In this document: positions 1 through 7,385 of the stretch, one piece after another
Layout of the letters: each line of letters starts with the position of its first letter
Numbering within the stretch: the stretch's first letter is position 1
Virus record (IMG/VR): IMGVR_UViG_2698536576_000009
Span: 1 to 14,455 of that record
Length of the DNA stretch: 14,455 bases
Origin: a virus
Lineage: Duplodnaviria; Heunggongvirae; Uroviricota; Caudoviricetes
Direction: 5' to 3' (one strand)
Position numbers and translations under genes: made by a program
The notes under the pieces: generated by a model
Database searches by the model: none
Seen by the model: the letters and a program-made list of their open reading frames with translations, nothing else
Told to the model about the DNA's origin: nothing

Positions 1-169
1 TATCGCGTCCTCAACAATGAATTTTGTGATGCGGTGCCTGGTGCCTCCAGGTGACGTTAACCAGTTAACAATTAACGCCGGATACAGAGAATCCACCCAT
101 AACACTGTTTTTGGTTTTAACTGTTCCGCGTGCGCTTAGCCGCATTCACCGCATCACACAATTCACTTT

Positions 170-227
170 AAAAAGGGCGGTAGAGCAGTCACGGAGTAAA
201 ACTGATACCGCCAAACGTCACCAGAAA
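170..227 (-). ncRNA. dicF: DicF-like small regulatory RNA (about 53 nt plus U-tail) at the 3' end of the leftward early operon
   Basis: Minus-strand sequence TTTCTGGTGACGTTTGGCGGTATCAGTTTTACTCCGTGACTGCTCTACCGCCCTTTTT: a stem GGCGGTA...TACCGCC followed by a T-run (intrinsic terminator), with an inner CAGT/ACTG pairing. Matches my recollection of E. coli DicF and sits downstream of ydfA/ydfB-like genes as in the Qin dicB operon. Not verified by search. Confidence 0.5.
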
Positions 228-562
228 ATTGATAGCAGAGGGCGTTGCAGCGGGGTTGTCACTTAAGCGTATGGTCAACCTGACAACCCGGTGTCCTCAA
301 CGGGGAAGGAATCACCCCGCCATACTTACCGCCGCGCCATTTCGCGGATTGCCACAACCGGAAGCGCACGGGCGAAGATGCCGGCGGCACGCAACAGAGG
401 GAGAAATGACTTCGCCGTGCGCTTTCGCGTTATGCCCTGACTTTTCAGGGATATATCCTTTCAGTAAACTGTCAGTGCCGGATTCTTATCCGTGTCCGGC
501 GCACGACCACACGTGACAGCGTGTTGGTCTCCATTTTTAACCGCATCTCAATGGAGGATAAA

Positions 563-805
563 ATGCCAACAAAACTATGCCCAGCCTGTAATTCTTCGTC
601 TGATTTTTCAGAGAAGAATGGTTATTATATTTTTGATTGCCCGAAACACGGTGTATTCCACATATCAAAACTTGATGGGATATTTGTGAAACCAAGTCAG
701 TATCAGGCTGACAAGTTAAATAAAATTCTCAATGTCAAAAGAGCGTCAGGCTATACGGGACCTATAGAGGTTTTACCGCGTCCTCGTCTTGTGGAACTGG
801 ATTAA
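563..805 (+). CDS. small zinc-ribbon-like protein (80 aa), unknown function
   Basis: ATG at 563 preceded by GGAGG with 5-nt spacing; CPAC...CPKH cysteine/histidine pairs suggest a zinc ribbon; AT-rich; oriented antisense to the surrounding operon; the 3' end overlaps the convergent 186-aa gene by 44 nt. The six-frame ORF begins at 521; the start was chosen by RBS. Confidence 0.5.
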   Translation: MPTKLCPACNSSSDFSEKNGYYIFDCPKHGVFHISKLDGIFVKPSQYQADKLNKILNVKRASGYTGPIEVLPRPRLVELD

Positions 806-1322
806 ACCAGTGCTCCTGAATCGCTCGTATTTTTACCCTCGGATGATTGCCGGGGGTGATTATTAATTCTGGCGGACATGGTTCTCCATTATGACAAATT
901 GCGCTATAAGTGAAATCAGCCAGAGCAGTGCCGGTCATTATTATTCCGAACTTATCAAGCAGCGAGAGCAAATCACGCAAACAGGAGTTATCAGTTTTTT
1001 CGTTATAAAATGAATCCCCTGATGCAGAGAGCATTTCACCTCGCTCTGCGATGCGTTTGGCCATTTTCCAGAATTCTTTTTTTGAATACTTTTCCTCGAC
1101 ATAAAAACCCATCGCCGAGGCAATCCGCTTTGCAGCTTCTTCAGTATCCTGGTTGTTTGTTACCGAAACAGAGTACAATCCGGTAAACGCATCGCGCACA
1201 TTACGAGCTATATTATCAGTGTCTTTTTTCGTTACCGATTCCAATGCAAGTTCGTTCAGGCGTTGACGGAGTGTCTGTGCTGCAATCTCCTGGATTGATA
1301 GTGGTAAATCTTTAAATTCCAT
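762..1322 (-). CDS. hypothetical protein (186 aa), no family recognised; candidate accessory/exclusion gene
   Basis: Long minus-strand ORF with ATG at 1322..1320 and a GGGG purine tract upstream; lies in the leftward operon between the ydfB-like gene and the dicF-like sRNA, where Qin has ydfC; lower GC than flanking prophage DNA by eye. Confidence 0.65.
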   Translation of the reverse strand: MEFKDLPLSIQEIAAQTLRQRLNELALESVTKKDTDNIARNVRDAFTGLYSVSVTNNQDTEEAAKRIASAMGFYVEEKYSKKEFWKMAKRIAERGEMLSASGDSFYNEKTDNSCLRDLLSLLDKFGIIMTGTALADFTYSAICHNGEPCPPELIITPGNHPRVKIRAIQEHWFNPVPQDEDAVKPL

Positions 1323-1333
1323 CTTTAACCCCG

Positions 1334-1462
1334 TTAGCCGTTAGATTTTGCCGAACTGGAAAGCGCCTGTTTAAACTCACTGAAGCTGAGAGCTTCTTCG
1401 CCTTCGGCAAGGCCTTCGAAGTATTCTTCGTAAGCCTTTTTCATGATTGTGTCGAAATCCAT
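1334..1462 (-). CDS. ydfB: YdfB-like small protein (42 aa)
   Basis: Not in the ORF track (below its size cutoff). Minus-strand ATG at 1462..1460 with AAGGTGAG RBS; translation MDFDTIMKKAYEEYFEGLAEGEEALSFSEFKQALSSSAKSNG, stop TAA at 1336..1334; begins 10 nt after the ydfA-like stop. Size and position match Qin ydfB. Confidence 0.5.
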   Translation of the reverse strand: MDFDTIMKKAYEEYFEGLAEGEEALSFSEFKQALSSSAKSNG

Positions 1463-1472
1463 ATCACTCACC

Positions 1473-1619
1473 TTAGTTTCTTTCCAACCAGCGACGTGCG
1501 CCAGCTTCGGTTTTAAACGTTTTGCTTTTGGTATACGTCATGGCGGTGAATGTGCCGTCCTGATTGGGAAACACGCCACATACCAGAGATTCGTTGTTGC
1601 CAAGATCGATAGTATCCAT
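1473..1619 (-). CDS. ydfA: YdfA-like small protein (48 aa; DUF1391-like)
   Basis: Internal ATG at 1619..1617 of the 1473..1712 minus ORF, preceded by GAGG with 5-nt spacing; product MDTIDLGNNESLVCGVFPNQDGTFTAMTYTKSKTFKTEAGARRWLERN; first gene downstream of the repressor, as ydfA is after dicA. Confidence 0.55.
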   Translation of the reverse strand: MDTIDLGNNESLVCGVFPNQDGTFTAMTYTKSKTFKTEAGARRWLERN

Positions 1620-1696
1620 GTTGACCTCATTTCCCCTTAACGCCGGGGTAGCGGAACTGTTTGCTGAGAACACCGTGCGGTGTCTTGATGGATGAT

Positions 1697-1725
1697 AATT
1701 TAGTTTCCTCATTAAAATTGGTCAA
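1697..1725 (-). promoter_or_regulatory. candidate sigma70 promoter of the leftward early operon (PdicB-like)
   Basis: On the minus strand: -35 TTGACC (1725..1720), 17-nt spacer, -10 TAAATT (1702..1697); about 70 nt upstream of the ydfA-like start. Confidence 0.4.
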
Positions 1726-1739
1726 GAATTTTTAATGAG
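1708..1739. promoter_or_regulatory. perfect 10-bp inverted repeat (CTCATTAAAA / TTTTAATGAG) with 12-bp spacer, bracketing the -35 element; candidate operator
   Basis: Read directly: arms at 1708..1717 and 1730..1739 are exact reverse complements; the spacer contains the minus-strand -35 hexamer. Confidence 0.5.
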
Positions 1740-1809
1740 AAAACTCAATATTTAATGCAAAATAAAGCCAATACATTGAAATGTAAGGCTTTAAAATTTG
1801 TGAAGGGGG

Positions 1810-2217
1810 TTATTGATGTTTGTTACGTTTGCGAGCTTCTAGTAGCTCGGTGAACAGGCGATTAAAATTCTCAACGCGGGCACGGAGTTCGCTGATTTGT
1901 GCTTGCTGCTCTGATTTTGGAAGTGCGCGATACAATCGCAATATCTCCAACTCATCTTCCGATAAGTCTAAGGCGCTGTTGAGTGCAACTGGTGGATCTG
2001 GTGTTTTATCCTCGTCACCAAATAGTATCCAAGTTGGTGAACATTGCAATACCTCAGCCAGGCGATGCAAATTTTGCCCGCGCGGGGCTGTATGGTCGCT
2101 TTCCCATAGTGAAATTGATGAGCCAGATACGCCAGCAGCTTTGCTTAAATCGTTTTGACTTAAACCAACCTGTTTGCGTCTTTCTCTAATTCGTTGACCT
2201 AAAGTTTTCTCGTTCAT
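1810..2217 (-). CDS. dicA: DicA-like HTH (XRE-family) prophage repressor, 135 aa, without a peptidase S24 domain
   Basis: Product MNEKTLGQRIRERRKQVGLSQNDLSKAAGVS...LQCSPTWILFGDEDK... has an N-terminal HTH and the C-terminal motifs and length I recall for E. coli DicA; divergent from a Cro-like gene. Confidence 0.85.
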   Translation of the reverse strand: MNEKTLGQRIRERRKQVGLSQNDLSKAAGVSGSSISLWESDHTAPRGQNLHRLAEVLQCSPTWILFGDEDKTPDPPVALNSALDLSEDELEILRLYRALPKSEQQAQISELRARVENFNRLFTELLEARKRNKHQ

Positions 2218-2233
2218 ATTTAGATATCTTAAT
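2218..2233. promoter_or_regulatory. near-palindromic 16-mer ATTTAGATATCTTAAT abutting the repressor start codon; candidate operator
   Basis: Contains the perfect palindrome AGATATCT (2222..2229) with symmetric A/T flanks; lies in the divergent repressor/cro intergenic region. A second imperfect dyad TAGTTATTACTA is at about 2257..2268. Confidence 0.3.
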
Positions 2234-2238
2234 AACCC

Positions 2239-2268
2239 TTGACTTGAGATTCCTTTAGTTATTACTAT
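2239..2268 (+). promoter_or_regulatory. candidate rightward promoter (PR-like) for the cro-like gene
   Basis: -35 TTGACT (2239..2244), 18-nt spacer, -10 TACTAT (2263..2268); about 27 nt upstream of the ATG at 2295. Confidence 0.4.
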
Positions 2269-2294
2269 TGAGAAAACTCAACTTTGGAGGGGTG

Positions 2295-2522
2295 ATGTTT
2301 AAATCAGACGTAATTAATTTTTATGGGACGAAAGCCAAAGTAGCGAAAGCTGCTGGTGTTGATCCATCTGCTGTTTCTCAATGGGGGGAATTGGTTCCTG
2401 AAGGTCGCGCGATCCGCCTGCAAGAGGCATCCGGCGGGGAACTTCAGTACGACCCCAAAGTTTATGACGAATATCGTAAGGCAAAGCGGGCGGGGCGGTT
2501 GAACAATGAAAATCACTCCTGA
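2295..2522 (+). CDS. Cro-like regulator (DicC / YdaS family)
   Basis: ATG at 2295 directly after GGAGGGG (in-frame GTG at 2292 is an alternative); 75-aa product with an HTH-like segment KAKVAKAAGVDPSAVSQW; divergent from the DicA-like repressor. The six-frame ORF starts at 2268 on TTG. Confidence 0.75.
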   Translation: MFKSDVINFYGTKAKVAKAAGVDPSAVSQWGELVPEGRAIRLQEASGGELQYDPKVYDEYRKAKRAGRLNNENHS

Positions 2523-3057
2523 ACAGGCTCGTGAGGCTCTGGATGCATGGGTATGCCGACCAGGAATGACACAGGAGCAGGCGACGATATTAATCACGGA
2601 AGCATTCTGGGCTCTGAAAGAACGCCCGAACATCGATGTTCAACGCGTCACGTTTGATGATGGCGCGGTTGATCAACGGGCGCTGGGCGTCAACCGGGTG
2701 AAGATATTCGAACGATGGAAAGCTATTGATACCAGGGATAAGCGGGAAAAATTCACGGCGCTGATTCCGGCAATTATGGAGGCTATCCGGATCAGCGATT
2801 TCAGGTTGTATTGTGAAATTACTGATGGAAAAAGCATTACGTACATGATCGCCGGGTTAAACAAAGAATATGGCGATGTGGTGGAGTCCGGGCTGCTTTT
2901 TGCGGATCCATCTGTTGTGGAACGTGAGACTGACGAGCTTATAGAAAAAGCCATTGCTTTCAAGCATGCGTATCGTCAGCAATATCAATATTACTTTGCA
3001 GATAAACAAATGTCTGCCAGGGGTTCGTATGAGTATCGATGCACTACGATGGGCTAA
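2506..3057 (+). CDS. YdaT-like regulatory protein (CII-position gene), 183 aa
   Basis: Overlaps the cro-like stop by 17 nt and the O-like start by 29 nt; positional equivalent of ydaT after ydaS/dicC. Family assignment is from synteny and general resemblance only. Confidence 0.55.
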   Translation: MKITPEQAREALDAWVCRPGMTQEQATILITEAFWALKERPNIDVQRVTFDDGAVDQRALGVNRVKIFERWKAIDTRDKREKFTALIPAIMEAIRISDFRLYCEITDGKSITYMIAGLNKEYGDVVESGLLFADPSVVERETDELIEKAIAFKHAYRQQYQYYFADKQMSARGSYEYRCTTMG

Positions 3058-4069
3058 AAAGGTGAAAACCGGCAGTTCATCCAGTAAGTCAGTATTGACC
3101 TGGCTTGCTGATATGTGCGGTGCCGATTTGTGTGCATACCCGTCTGTATCTGCACTGGCAGAAGTAACGGAACTGAACAAAAAGACTGTGCAGGACAGCT
3201 TACGACACCTGATGGAGATTGGGTTAATTGTTGATACCGGTGAGAGAAAAGGCCGAACAAAGCAAATCGTGGTGTACCGACTTATCGGTGTAGAAGAAAG
3301 CGTTGCCGAGCCTGAATACACCCAAAAACGGGAGTCTTTAAAGGTGAGTAAAATTGGTGCTGTTAATAAAAACAGTACCGAAAATGGTTATGTTTCAGCA
3401 CAAAACAGACCCAAAAACGGAACTCTTAGCTGCATGGAAAATAACCAAAGACACCCAAATTTTCCATCAAAGACACCCAAAAACGGATCACGGAACCCAA
3501 AGGAATCCAAAGATCTAAACCCCACACATAACGCACGCGAGAGTGCTCCGACCAGTGAGCAGGAAGTTTTGTCGTTACAGGCACCACCCCCTGTATTCCT
3601 GGAAGGCCTGAGCGAACCCATCGGGAAATTTCCGATGACCGATAGCTGGTATCCGTCACGTGATTTTCGACGACGGGCTGCGTTGTGGGGGATGGCTTTG
3701 CCGGAGACAGAATTTACACCTGCTGAACTTGCCGCCTTCCGGGACTACTGGGCAGCGGAGAGGAAAGTGTTTACGCAGATTCAGTGGGAGCAGAAATTCG
3801 CCCGTCACGTAAATCACGTCAGGGCGCAGGTTAAACCAGTCAGCAAGGGGGTAAACCATGCAGCAGCACCAGGTGGCACCGCATCACGGGCAGTTCAGGA
3901 AATTCGGGCAGCACGTGAGCAGTGGGAACGTGAAAACGGATTTATCAGCGACGGAAACGGCGTGGAAGCTGTGGGAGCTCATGGGGGAGGTTTATTCGAA
4001 CCGCTGGACTCAGAAGAACGGGGCCGCACCTTCGACGCTCTGGATTGCACAGATTGGTGCGATGACTGA
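3029..4069 (+). CDS. replication initiator, O-like (N-terminal winged-helix domain plus DnaT-like C-terminal region)
   Basis: ATG at 3029 preceded by AGGGG; N-terminus MSIDALRWAKK...LTWLADMCGADLCAYPSVSALAEVTELNKKTVQDSLRHLMEIGLIV is typical of phage replication-initiator HTH domains. The ORF track start at 2954 was rejected for lack of an RBS. The 3' 212 nt overlap the P-like ORF. Confidence 0.7.
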   Translation: MSIDALRWAKKVKTGSSSSKSVLTWLADMCGADLCAYPSVSALAEVTELNKKTVQDSLRHLMEIGLIVDTGERKGRTKQIVVYRLIGVEESVAEPEYTQKRESLKVSKIGAVNKNSTENGYVSAQNRPKNGTLSCMENNQRHPNFPSKTPKNGSRNPKESKDLNPTHNARESAPTSEQEVLSLQAPPPVFLEGLSEPIGKFPMTDSWYPSRDFRRRAALWGMALPETEFTPAELAAFRDYWAAERKVFTQIQWEQKFARHVNHVRAQVKPVSKGVNHAAAPGGTASRAVQEIRAAREQWERENGFISDGNGVEAVGAHGGGLFEPLDSEERGRTFDALDCTDWCDD

Positions 4070-4523
4070 GCAGCAAATCCGGCAGGTCTGCCGCCAGTGC
4101 ATGGACCGCTGCCGGGCGGGTGAAACATGGCCCCCGGACCTGGCTGAGTTTGTGGCGCTGATTTCGGAAAGCGGAGCCAATCCATTCGGTCTGACGGTGG
4201 ATGCTGTGATGGAGGAGTACCGCCGCTGGCGCAATGAGTCCTGGCGATACGACGGAAGTGATAAGTACCCGTGGTCTCAGCCTGTGCTGTATCACATTTG
4301 CCTCGAGATGCGTTCAAAGGGGATTGAGCGCCAGATGACCGAAGGGGAATTAAAACGGCTTGCAGAACGGCAGCTGACGAAATGGGCAAAGCATGTAGGT
4401 AACGGCCTGAGCGTTCCGCCAGTCCGGCGACAACTGGCGGCACCCAAACGCCCGTCGGGGCCAACGCCAATTGAGTTGCTGAAACAGGAATATGAACGCC
4501 GGAAAGCGGCTGGTTTTGTTTGA
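3858..4523 (+). CDS. replication protein P-like (helicase loader)
   Basis: C-terminal half (DKYPWSQPVLYHICLEMRSKG...TEGELKRLAERQLTKWAKHV) resembles lambda P as I recall it; ATG at 3858 follows AAGGGGG. An alternative start at 4062 (ATGACTGA, 8-nt overlap with the O-like stop) would give 153 aa. Confidence 0.7.
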   Translation: MQQHQVAPHHGQFRKFGQHVSSGNVKTDLSATETAWKLWELMGEVYSNRWTQKNGAAPSTLWIAQIGAMTEQQIRQVCRQCMDRCRAGETWPPDLAEFVALISESGANPFGLTVDAVMEEYRRWRNESWRYDGSDKYPWSQPVLYHICLEMRSKGIERQMTEGELKRLAERQLTKWAKHVGNGLSVPPVRRQLAAPKRPSGPTPIELLKQEYERRKAAGFV

Positions 4524-4556
4524 GTTGATAAGTAATTTTACCGGGAGGAAATTTTA

Positions 4557-5318
4557 ATGGAGACTGTTTTTGACGCACTGAAAGCAATGGGAAAAGCCAC
4601 GTCGGTAGAACTCGCTGCGCGACTTGATATCAGCCGTGAAGAAGTGCTGAACGAGCTGTGGGAACTGAAAAAGTCTGGCTTCGTTGATAAAAGCGTAAAC
4701 ACCTGGCGTGTGGCTGATAACAACGTTCAGCAGGAGCAGCCAGCGCCGGCAGAACTGCCGGAAGAAACTACCACGGCAACAGTCGCGAAAATTTCAGAGA
4801 GCGATTTAACTGCGACGATTGAACAACGTGGACCACAAACGGCGGATGAACTGGCTACGCTGTTCGGTACCACATCCCGCAAAGTGGCTTCAACGCTGGC
4901 AATGGCAATCAGCAAAGGTCGTCTGATTCGCGTAAATCAGGGCGGTAAATTTCGTTACTGCATACCGGGCGATAATTTACCAGCAGAGCCGAAAGCAGCA
5001 TCGGTAGCGGAAACTGATGGTAAGGCCTTTCCTCAGCCAGCAGGCGTTGCGTTACCAGTACAGGAAGCTGTAACACTGGAAGAAATTAAAACAGAAACTG
5101 TGGCGGACATTGTGCAGTCGCTGCCATCGTTTACTGAAACGCGAGCTGATGATTTGATTTTGCCATCGCTGCATATGGCAAACCGCGAACTGCGGCGGGC
5201 GAAGAATCATGTCCAGAAGTGGGAGCGTGTCTGTGCCGCGCTGCGGGAGCTGAACAAGTACCGGGATATTGTTCGACAGATTGTTGATTCCTCCAGTCGT
5301 ATTGTGTCGGAAAAGTGA
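4557..5318 (+). CDS. hypothetical prophage protein with two winged-helix-like segments (253 aa)
   Basis: ATG at 4557 with GGGAGG RBS at 9-nt spacing; repeated HTH-like segments ([28 protein letters not shown] and [29 protein letters not shown]). Confidence 0.7.
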
Positions 5319-5333
5319 TTGCCGGAGGCGCTT

Positions 5334-5756
5334 ATGGCAAAAATTTTTACACAAGAAGAGCGAGAAAAAATTAAAGGGCAGGTTGTTGAACTTGTACGTC
5401 TGAGCGGTCGCGAGACGTTACGGGCACTGGAGGCTAAAACCGGTGTATCAAGGTATTACATAAGCACTCTCGCCAGAGAACTGGTCGCCAGTGGTGATGT
5501 TTACAATTCAGGCTACGGATTATTCCCGTCCGAGCAGGCGCGTAAAGACTGGCAAAACGCCCGCAAAAAACTATCAAGGGCAAAGGTGAAGAAACCGGTT
5601 GTGGTTGATCCTGACCTTATCTGGTCATTACCAGACGGAGAAATACGCCGCTACGACAGGCGTCTGAACATAATCTGTCGCGAGTGCAGGAAGAGCGAAG
5701 TTATGCAGCGCGTGCTGGCGTTTTATCAGGGGAAATTTCAGGAGGTGGTGCGGTGA
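5334..5756 (+). CDS. hypothetical protein (140 aa) with HTH-like segment
   Basis: ATG at 5334 with GGAGG 5 nt upstream (the track's upstream TTG at 5319 was rejected); stop overlaps the next start (GTGA). Confidence 0.65.
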   Translation: MAKIFTQEEREKIKGQVVELVRLSGRETLRALEAKTGVSRYYISTLARELVASGDVYNSGYGLFPSEQARKDWQNARKKLSRAKVKKPVVVDPDLIWSLPDGEIRRYDRRLNIICRECRKSEVMQRVLAFYQGKFQEVVR

Positions 5757-6028
5757 GTGAATCAAAATGCCAGGTTAATGGCAACAAGATAGAACCGTGT
5801 ACGGTACTGGCAAAATCCCTTGAGCATGATGCTGAATACACGACGCGAAAAGGTCTGCTGATATACAAAATCTGGAATGAGAGTTTAACTCGCGGACCTG
5901 ATTTGGTGATGTTGCGTTCCGGTGAATTTTCTAAATTACCAGTTCGAGTTTCATTTTGCCCGTTCTGTGGTGAAAGTCTGAAAACGTGGGAAGCGGAGGC
6001 AACCAGTGAGCGGAAAAAGAATGACTAA
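5753..6028 (+). CDS. hypothetical small protein (91 aa) with C-terminal CPFC zinc-binding-like motif
   Basis: GTG at 5753 preceded by AGGAGG at 7-nt spacing, overlapping the upstream stop (GTGA coupling). Confidence 0.55.
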   Translation: MSESKCQVNGNKIEPCTVLAKSLEHDAEYTTRKGLLIYKIWNESLTRGPDLVMLRSGEFSKLPVRVSFCPFCGESLKTWEAEATSERKKND

Positions 6029-6230
6029 CAGAGAGCTTGTCGATGCCGCGATTAAGCTTGCTGGTGATTTTTATTCAATGATGGGGTACGCGCATCGCCC
6101 TGGATTCAAATATTGGGAATCACCGCATCCGCAAGAGCAACAGGTATTTCAAATGGCCTGCCGTGCTTTTGAGGTTATTCGCGGTTCTGATGTGATGGAC
6201 GCCGTTGCCGACCTGGAGGATGAAGAGTGA
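6006..6230 (+). CDS. hypothetical small protein (about 70-74 aa)
   Basis: GTG at 6006 after GGAGG (6-nt spacing), or ATG at 6021; stop TGA overlaps the next GTG start. Confidence 0.55.
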   Translation: MSGKRMTNRELVDAAIKLAGDFYSMMGYAHRPGFKYWESPHPQEQQVFQMACRAFEVIRGSDVMDAVADLEDEE

Positions 6231-6865
6231 GCAAGATTGACTATCAGGCACTACGTGCTAAGGCAGAAAAAGCAACGTGTGGCGAGTGGTCGCTCGAATA
6301 TGGAAAGGGCCGATTTGATGGTGATGATGCACTAATTCATCGTGAAGTTGCTGGATATATTCCTGTTTGCAGAATTGAAGGAGCGCATCCAGAAAGCGGT
6401 TTCGATGAAGATTTCCAAATGGAACAGCAGTCCAATGCTGAATTCATCGCTGCAGCCAATCCAGCTACCGTGCTGACACTGCTGGCTGAACGGGAAGCCC
6501 AAAGCAAACGCATTGCAGAGCTGGAGACTAATCTTGCGGCACTGGCGGTGGAGAATGCGGGAATAAAGTCTGCAATTCCTCAACTACGGGATATTGATGC
6601 TGACAATGACAATATGGATGACGTATCTCTTGCTGAAGACTTCGGATTCAATCATGCAATAGAACGGATGAAACGACGGATTACTGAAATTCCGGCTGCT
6701 GACGCTTTCCTGGCTGATGTTCGAGCGGGGGCGCTTAACGACCTTTGCACGGCGTTTGTCAGGCACGCAAAAGTTGCAGGACTGGATGATGCCGATACCG
6801 TAACGCTTAAGGAAGTGACAGAAGCATTGTTGCATTGTGCAGAACAGATTCGCGCGCCTGAATAA
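6227..6865 (+). CDS. Ead/Ea22-like prophage protein (212 aa), tentative
   Basis: GTG at 6227 with GGAGGA RBS; the internal motif NAEFIAAANPATVLTLLAEREAQSKRIAELE resembles Ea22-like proteins as I recall them. Confidence 0.6.
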   Translation: MSKIDYQALRAKAEKATCGEWSLEYGKGRFDGDDALIHREVAGYIPVCRIEGAHPESGFDEDFQMEQQSNAEFIAAANPATVLTLLAEREAQSKRIAELETNLAALAVENAGIKSAIPQLRDIDADNDNMDDVSLAEDFGFNHAIERMKRRITEIPAADAFLADVRAGALNDLCTAFVRHAKVAGLDDADTVTLKEVTEALLHCAEQIRAPE

Positions 6866-6962
6866 TTAAATTTAGTGTTGTAAATAAAATTTAATCCTTA
6901 ACCGGAGGGATTTCTGCACCCTCAGAACATCGGGAGGCCGCCTGAAAGGGCGGTAATGAAAA

Positions 6963-7382
6963 GTGACTGAATTAACCAAAGAGCAATTAATCGAAGAAGC
7001 CAAATTAAAAATAGCGATTGCGAAATGCCACCCCAATTCAGGGATGGCACGGGTAGAGGGCGAGTTATTCAAAATTGCACTGGCATCGCTGGTAGCAGAG
7101 CCAGTTGCATGGACTGATGACGAGGAACTGCGAGATGTTGAGCAAATTGGTTTAGGTTATTTATTACCTTGTCCTCCAGATAAATACGCAGACCCGCGTC
7201 GTGTAATTCCGCTGTATCGTGTGCCGCCAGTTCCCACAGTGCAGGCACCGGGCATTGAGATCGCAATAAACGAACTGGTGTCTCTGTCCCCACGGCTGGA
7301 TAAACGAGCGGTGGAAACTCTTTCTATGGCTGTGGCACATCTACGCAAACTGGTTAAGAAGCAGATACAGGCCAAGGACTAA
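6963..7382 (+). CDS. hypothetical protein (139 aa), tandem paralog of the next gene
   Basis: GTG start; N-terminus MTELTKEQLIEEAKLKIAIAK...KIALASLVAEP parallels MTTFTDKEMIKEIKERIGS...YEIALASLEAEP of the next ORF. The RBS is weak. Confidence 0.55.
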   Translation: MTELTKEQLIEEAKLKIAIAKCHPNSGMARVEGELFKIALASLVAEPVAWTDDEELRDVEQIGLGYLLPCPPDKYADPRRVIPLYRVPPVPTVQAPGIEIAINELVSLSPRLDKRAVETLSMAVAHLRKLVKKQIQAKD

Positions 7383-7385
7383 CAC

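Follow-up and report, generated by a model that had tools for sequence, protein, structure and literature searches.

DicF is a well-studied prophage small RNA (sRNA) of E. coli that inhibits cell division and certain genes of sugar metabolism, and the closest described system is the dicBF operon of the Qin prophage in Escherichia coli K-12. The dicBF genes have been described in a layout of the lambdoid early-left type (PMC5069750). RNase E makes the 5′ end of DicF, Rho-independent termination makes the 3′ end of the 53-nt form, and RNase III makes a further form of 72 nt (PMC5069750). On the side of the targets, the same report finds that the ribosome-binding site (RBS) of ftsZ is bound by the 3′ part of DicF, and xylR and pykA by its 5′ end. 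Compensatory mutations show direct pairing with all three targets in K-12, and the mutant DicF23 indicates that pairing upstream of the ftsZ RBS is important (PMC5069750). The dicF gene occurs in multiple prophage contexts and in several copies in O157:H7 (Balasubramanian et al. 2016, PMC5069750). An expansion from one to four copies in EHEC, with roles on pchA and stx2A, is summarized in PMC7873438, which cites Melson and Kendall (2019).

The window analysed here is the whole 14,455-nt stretch of DNA (positions 1 to 14,455 of the IMG/VR record IMGVR_UViG_2698536576_000009), which corresponds to positions 2005208-2019662 of NZ_LR882057.1. A megablast search with window positions 1..2600 found two chicken-derived E. 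coli chromosomes with 99.9% identity over the full length, to which we refer as sister genomes. The elements of the sRNA gene in the window are as follows, where DicF nucleotide n is window position 228-n.

175..227, minus strand: dicF, the 53-nt DicF sRNA (RF00039 match and K-12 alignment)
170..174, minus strand: UUUUU tail of the Rho-independent terminator, at which the 53-nt form stops (read from the sequence)
176..212, minus strand: terminator hairpin of two stacked helices, outer nt 16-22/46-52 and inner nt 24-28/38-42 (fold)
213..227, minus strand: 5′ single-stranded region, DicF nt 1-15, the seed for xylR and pykA (unpaired in the MFE and centroid structures; identical to K-12)
196..192, minus strand: CUCCG loop, nt 32-36, complementary to CGGAG in the ftsZ RBS (RNAduplex)
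181, minus strand: G47A, the sole difference from K-12 DicF (K-12 alignment)

We assign window 227..175 on the minus strand, with high confidence, to the dicF gene of the Hfq-binding sRNA DicF, located in an early-left operon of the dicBF type in a truncated lambdoid E. coli prophage. As such it is an ordinary copy of dicF and already known. The assignment is made because of homology and the covariance-model score, and not because of fold energy. In an Rfam 15 scan of the whole window at gathering thresholds, RF00039 (DicF) is matched in full (model positions 1-52 of 52) at 226..175 of the minus strand. The score of 74.1 bits is well above the gathering score of 48, and the E value is 4e-15 (2.2e-16 when 1..800 is scanned alone). 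Pairwise alignment places K-12 MG1655 dicF (b1574, 53 nt, NC_000913.3 1649382-1649434) on window 227..175 with 52/53 nucleotides identical, DicF nt 1-46 having the K-12 sequence throughout. The minus strand from 227 to 170 reads UUUCUGGUGACGUUUGGCGGUAUCAGUUUUACUCCGUGACUGCUCUACCGCCC, then UUUUU. The preliminary description had recognized a DicF-like element at 170..227 from the letters alone, and its coordinates coincide exactly with DicF plus the U-tail. The covariance-model search and the K-12 alignment that it proposed both agree with its naming of DicF, since the score is well beyond the threshold and the 5′ region used for xylR and pykA and the loop that faces the ftsZ RBS are unchanged. 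The conservation that it looked for in the ftsZ-pairing seed is likewise found, the CUCCG loop and the 5′ seed being intact. Its match to the DicF sequence holds for all but one position; the copy is not identical and carries G47A. In the matching RefSeq genome, the NCBI pipeline leaves dicF and everything between the 186-aa open reading frame (ORF) described below and dicB unannotated. Correct labelling shows that this cryptic prophage carries both cell-division inhibitors, DicF and DicB.

The DicF hairpin folds as the family consensus, and its helices are paired in 100% and 99.7% of cells in an alignment of 59 distinct sequences. Fold energy was considered as support for DicF and was dropped, as the z-score of the 63-nt element is weak and not significant (-1.83; 9/200 shuffles fold equally well). 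In RNAduplex calculations with K-12 ftsZ from -60 to +30, which are unconstrained and ignore the sRNA's own structure, CUCCG at nt 32-36 faces the CGGAG of the ftsZ RBS in both the G47 and the A47 allele.

The position of the single substitution should be noted. Through G47A, a wobble pair of the terminator stem (U21·G47) becomes U21-A47; the predicted hairpin energy is equal for both alleles (-15.9 kcal/mol), and the pair probability of nt 47 is 0.99. In the Rfam consensus, the 21/47 pair is written in lower case, which denotes a variable pair, and the version in the window is scored as compatible. A47 is found in none of the 128 other copies among the matches listed, all of which have G47. 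They comprise 120 IMG/VR stretches, 7 loci obtained with a looser pattern in species-representative genomes, and K-12; the IMG/VR search, which allowed R at nt 47 in its pattern and gave at least 120 stretches, is a sample and not a census. One of these loci (L129) has C21-G47; with the window included, positions 21 and 47 form U·G, C-G, or U-A, each a standard pair. The exact 123-nt allele around dicF is present in 2/5426 complete E. coli genomes. In the unconstrained duplex, A47 loses one peripheral pair with C-23 of ftsZ, and the energy changes from -38.5 to -35.1 kcal/mol.

These numbers bear on the alternative that G47A makes an altered DicF with weaker ftsZ repression and lower toxicity, which would act on metabolic targets only. 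The scarcity of A47 in both the 128 sampled copies (among the matches listed) and the 5426 complete genomes could be taken in this sense, as could the lost ftsZ pair, which makes the predicted duplex 3.4 kcal/mol less favorable, since the DicF23 results in K-12 point to the importance of pairing in the region upstream of the ftsZ RBS (PMC5069750). We nevertheless regard such a change of function as very unlikely. The predicted duplex is very long, the lost pair is at its margin, and the core that faces the RBS is preserved; nt 47 of the free RNA is engaged in the terminator stem with the near-complete pairing given above, and Rfam counts the 21/47 pair as variable. Rarity may also mean a recent mutation in one clone, both genomes being from chickens. 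The rarity of the allele is most simply explained by a recent neutral substitution in one lineage. What novelty is left at this locus consists of this rare structure-preserving allele and of a non-coding block, described below, that is more conserved than its protein neighbors.

The genes and signals upstream of dicF in the same orientation, and the signal at the edge of the window, are as follows.

1810..2217, minus strand: DicA-like CI-type repressor, 135 aa (Pfam HTH_3; BLASTP 72/128, 56% identity to K-12 DicA)
1697..1725, minus strand: promoter-like TTGACC-17-TAAATT in the gap that separates ydfA from the repressor gene; candidate promoter of the operon (consensus scan only)
1473..1619, minus strand: ydfA (DUF1391), first gene of the operon (Pfam PF07151, 101.4 bits; ydfA in a sister genome)
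1334..1462, minus strand: ydfB (ydfB in a sister genome; phrog_2061, E 6e-27)
762..1322, minus strand: 186-aa ORF at the place of K-12 ydfC (N-terminal ~90 aa match phrog_2151 and phrog_1363)
8..12, minus strand: GAGGA, likely Shine-Dalgarno sequence of dicB, 7 nt before the ATG

Divergently from the repressor gene run a gene of the P22-Cro type, a YdaT-family gene, and replication genes, and the gene order as a whole is that of the immunity and early-left regions in lambdoid phages. The preliminary description had stated that the operon context of dicA, ydfA, ydfB, and dicF is preserved. This is right for the DicA-like repressor, ydfA, and ydfB, which all lie upstream of dicF; it does not extend to ydfC, which is replaced, and the repressor has just 56% identity with DicA. 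The 186-aa ORF was considered as a diverged or fused YdfC and rejected, as no similarity is found (BLASTP against YdfC, E 8.9). The segment 377..805, which reaches into this ORF, is present at ≥80% coverage in only 23/5426 E. coli genomes. Judging from its position, the sequence at 1725..1697 may be the operon promoter; in the consensus scan, the count of promoter-like sites around this region is not above shuffled expectation.

The 3′ flank of the 186-aa ORF shows two further features. An unannotated ORF of 80 aa (MPTKLCPACNSS...CPKH) lies at 563..805 on the plus strand, convergent to the dicBF-type operon, with GGAGG 7 nt before its ATG, and shares 44 nt with the 3′ end of the 186-aa ORF. 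Its product matches phrog_10133 (E 5.8e-27) and has no Pfam hit, and PGAP leaves it unannotated in a sister genome; the CxxC...CxxH spacing suggests that it may encode a small zinc-binding protein. Just past the stop codon of the 186-aa ORF, CGCUCUUUU occurs at 737..745 on the minus strand, which we take to resemble a boxA-type antitermination motif and which could easily be due to chance.

Judging from a sister genome, the window ends immediately before dicB. In NZ_LR882057.1 the first three bases past position 1 are the ATG, so that the expectation of a dicB-like gene just outside the window proves correct to the base. The sequence past position 1 in a sister genome begins ATG GAA AAG and is annotated as dicB (8601-8789 of locus L001, 62 aa), and its product matches Pfam PF05358 with 131.8 bits over the 62-position model from end to end. 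The K-12 junction is identical, with GACGCGATA directly followed by the ATG of dicB. Downstream of dicB in a sister genome are a DUF1482 (ydfD-like) gene, an exonuclease gene, a frameshifted integrase gene, and tRNA-Ser. It had also been stated that no start codon follows the GGAGG at 48..44; this stands for ATG and GTG and fails for TTG, of which there are two, at 17 and 14. Both are out of frame, and in a sister genome they end in a TAA that overlaps the dicB ATG. GGAGG at 48..44 was itself considered as the dicB Shine-Dalgarno sequence and rejected, since 44 nt separate it from the ATG and it forms part of a small hairpin (51-47/41-37). GTG codons at 105 and 96 on the minus strand share the dicB frame, which no stop interrupts, and N-terminal extensions of 32 or 35 residues are formally possible; the annotated ATG with GAGGA is far more likely to be the start than either upstream GTG.

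Around dicF, conservation extends well beyond the sRNA into the following two non-coding segments.

228..375, minus strand: conserved non-coding leader, precursor segment, nearly identical to K-12
16..167, minus strand: spacer from dicF to dicB, enclosed by a long-range stem of 20 bp (MFE; 167-147/36-16, one G159/A24 mismatch)

In the pairwise alignment, homology to K-12 is almost perfect over window 375..1. The same interval is found in essentially all of the 128 related loci among the matches listed, and the block reaches ~500 in most of them. The flanking proteins have diverged from those of K-12, with 56% identity for the repressor and 55% for DicB of a sister genome. The non-coding block behaves as a conserved mosaic unit, and the breakpoints coincide with its ends. 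A block that is more conserved than the proteins around it, together with a change that preserves a stem, is the pattern that would be expected of an RNA module that is under selection and passes from one lambdoid prophage to another.

The leader is strongly structured by prediction, with a z-score of -3.64 for the 400-nt fold. Among 88 distinct sequences, 0/43 predicted pairs in the leader (517..223) have a compensatory change; the region is so invariant that this counts neither for nor against the predicted structure. The 3′ end of the leader gives AU/UUU at the mature 5′ end of DicF, where the slash marks the junction, and we take this sequence to fit the preference motif of RNase E. A conserved inverted repeat, GCGCACGG...CCGTGCGC, lies at ~362..420 on the minus strand, with an apical segment that occurs as discrete cassettes among 88 aligned loci. 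In this repeat the window has a unique TCGCCCG where other loci have TCGACCG.

The 20-bp stem that closes the spacer consists of standard pairs in 97.5% of cells among 59 distinct sequences. Its variation includes one pair that is CG in 41, UG in 15, and UA in 2 sequences, and another that is GC in 32 and GU in 27. Only 5 pairs change on both sides in this stem and the DicF hairpin taken together, in sequences that are closely related and with a structure that was derived from one of them; covariation of the two modelled elements is thus supportive only. The 3′ arm of the stem ends 3 nt before the GAGGA Shine-Dalgarno sequence. The stem is a candidate substrate of RNase III, and the 3′ end of the 72-nt form would then lie near window 156. 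This position falls in the 5′ arm of the predicted stem because the end of the 72-nt form is 19 nt past that of the 53-nt form.

This arrangement also raises the question of whether the main role of the hairpin is one in cis, namely to terminate or attenuate transcription within the operon and so set, together with the long stem downstream, the level of the dicB transcript, with regulation in trans being incidental. The hairpin and U-tail are located 175 nt upstream of dicB, which would need read-through, and the conserved long-range stem brackets the spacer up to the immediate vicinity of the Shine-Dalgarno sequence. It is hard to reconcile this idea with nt 1-15 and the loop, which are dispensable for termination and yet almost invariant in the 128 loci, except nt 12. 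The compensatory-mutation data on the near-identical K-12 RNA (PMC5069750) also argue against it, and the K-12 seed mutants DicF3, DicF9, and DicF23, in which the hairpin is intact, are already reported to abolish the filamentation and xylose phenotypes. A mainly cis-acting hairpin is extremely unlikely on these grounds, though roles in cis and in trans are not mutually exclusive.

A broader proposal is that the block of ~375-500 nt, made up of the structured leader, DicF, and the STnc100-like spacer with its 20-bp stem, is an exchangeable RNA module with functions beyond DicF, of which the rare G47A allele would be a tuned variant. The conservation described above is what draws attention to it, and we hold it to be doubtful though not negligible. 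If it were true, one more RNA might be processed from the block, or the block might include a switch in cis that links dicB translation to cleavage by RNase III. Searched permissively against Rfam, window 1..800 gave only DicF and a sub-threshold match to STnc100 (RF02076) in the spacer, at 37.7 bits against a gathering score of 47.

Our preferred reading is that of a canonical dicF gene, for which the following course would apply. Relief of the DicA-like repressor would give a polycistronic transcript that starts upstream of ydfA and runs via ydfB and the 186-aa ORF into the non-coding block. A cut by RNase E at the AU/UUU junction would generate the 5′ end of DicF. Termination at the hairpin and U-tail would give the 53-nt form, whereas read-through into dicB, followed by a cut by RNase III within the 20-bp stem, would give the 72-nt form. 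With the assistance of Hfq, the 3′ part with the CUCCG loop would pair with ftsZ and occlude its RBS, leading to a division block and filamentation, and the 5′ single-stranded end would repress xylR and pykA, with metabolic effects. The sequence features present, namely the AU/UUU junction at the 5′ end, the U-tail, and a 20-bp stem that includes window 156, are compatible with maturation by RNase E and by termination or RNase III and with Hfq binding. We infer that the copy in the window is probably expressed and processed and represses its targets by analogy with published work on K-12.

The state of the prophage has to be set against this reading. At ~10250..14455 the prophage ends, and the host genes zinT, msrQ, msrP, and hiuH follow, with zinT ~1.1 kb past the last phage gene. 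The other end of the prophage in a sister genome has a frameshifted integrase gene beside tRNA-Ser and mtfA. The two ends as seen imply a cryptic remnant of ~20 kb without late genes. Additional RNAs are found in it on the plus strand. A type I toxin-antitoxin locus of the hok/sok kind (Rfam sok, 120.7 bits, 7816..7991) overlaps the annotated hokD coding sequence at 7986..8141. An isrK match (Rfam, 74.3 bits, 10819..10895) adjoins a C4 antisense RNA (76.3 bits, 10923..11007) at the truncated right end of the prophage, where the two are flanked by an ORF6N-domain gene (9686..10246, minus strand) on one side and zinT on the other.

That the prophage is a remnant with a frameshifted integrase in a sister genome and no late genes speaks against a working dicF, and regulation may differ from that in Qin, given a repressor with 56% identity to DicA. 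Two weak terminator-like sites on the minus strand and the convergent ORF at 563..805 also stand between the presumed promoter and dicF. The gene might then be an intact but effectively silent relic, either because the operon is repressed for good or because transcription stops short of dicF. The defective prophage, its intact repressor gene, and these upstream obstacles fit such a relic, as does the fact that this is the only place of dicF in one sister genome (H41). The Qin prophage of K-12, on the other hand, is equally defective, and its dicF works when expressed (PMC5069750). Furthermore, a block that is near-identical to K-12 between proteins of ~55% identity argues for selection or for recent exchange of a working module, and the sole substitution keeps the structure. 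We therefore consider silence unlikely and retain the reading of a dicF gene that would function as in K-12.

Compared with the dicF locus of K-12 Qin (RF00039), the window shares 52/53 nt of DicF, the hairpin, the U-tail, the 5′ seed, and the anti-RBS loop. Near-identity extends to the leader of ~150 nt and to the 175 nt that separate DicF from dicB; at both loci, dicF is preceded by ydfA and ydfB and followed by dicB and a ydfD-like gene. The window differs from K-12 by G47A, by the 186-aa ORF in place of ydfC, and by the additional convergent 80-aa ORF. The repressor and DicB are 56% and 55% identical to their K-12 counterparts, respectively, and the prophage in a sister genome is located between tRNA-Ser/mtfA and zinT, not at the Qin site.

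In comparison with the multi-copy dicF of EHEC O157:H7, where strains have up to four copies, one of the two matching genomes has dicF at a single place, and the window allows no inference of a link to pathotype or virulence (pchA, stx2A). More widely, the 123-nt segment around dicF is found in 3952/5426 complete E. coli genomes, at up to 7 places per genome; the distribution of dicF over multiple prophages is already published.

The comparison with STnc100 (RF02076) concerns the spacer. Its segment 158..23 on the minus strand matches model positions 26-154, and the outer stem and the CCNGG-AGGCA-CCNGG hairpin are common to both, whereas only part of the 206-position model is covered and the score is under the gathering threshold. 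In prophages of other enterobacteria, STnc100 may be the counterpart of this leader.
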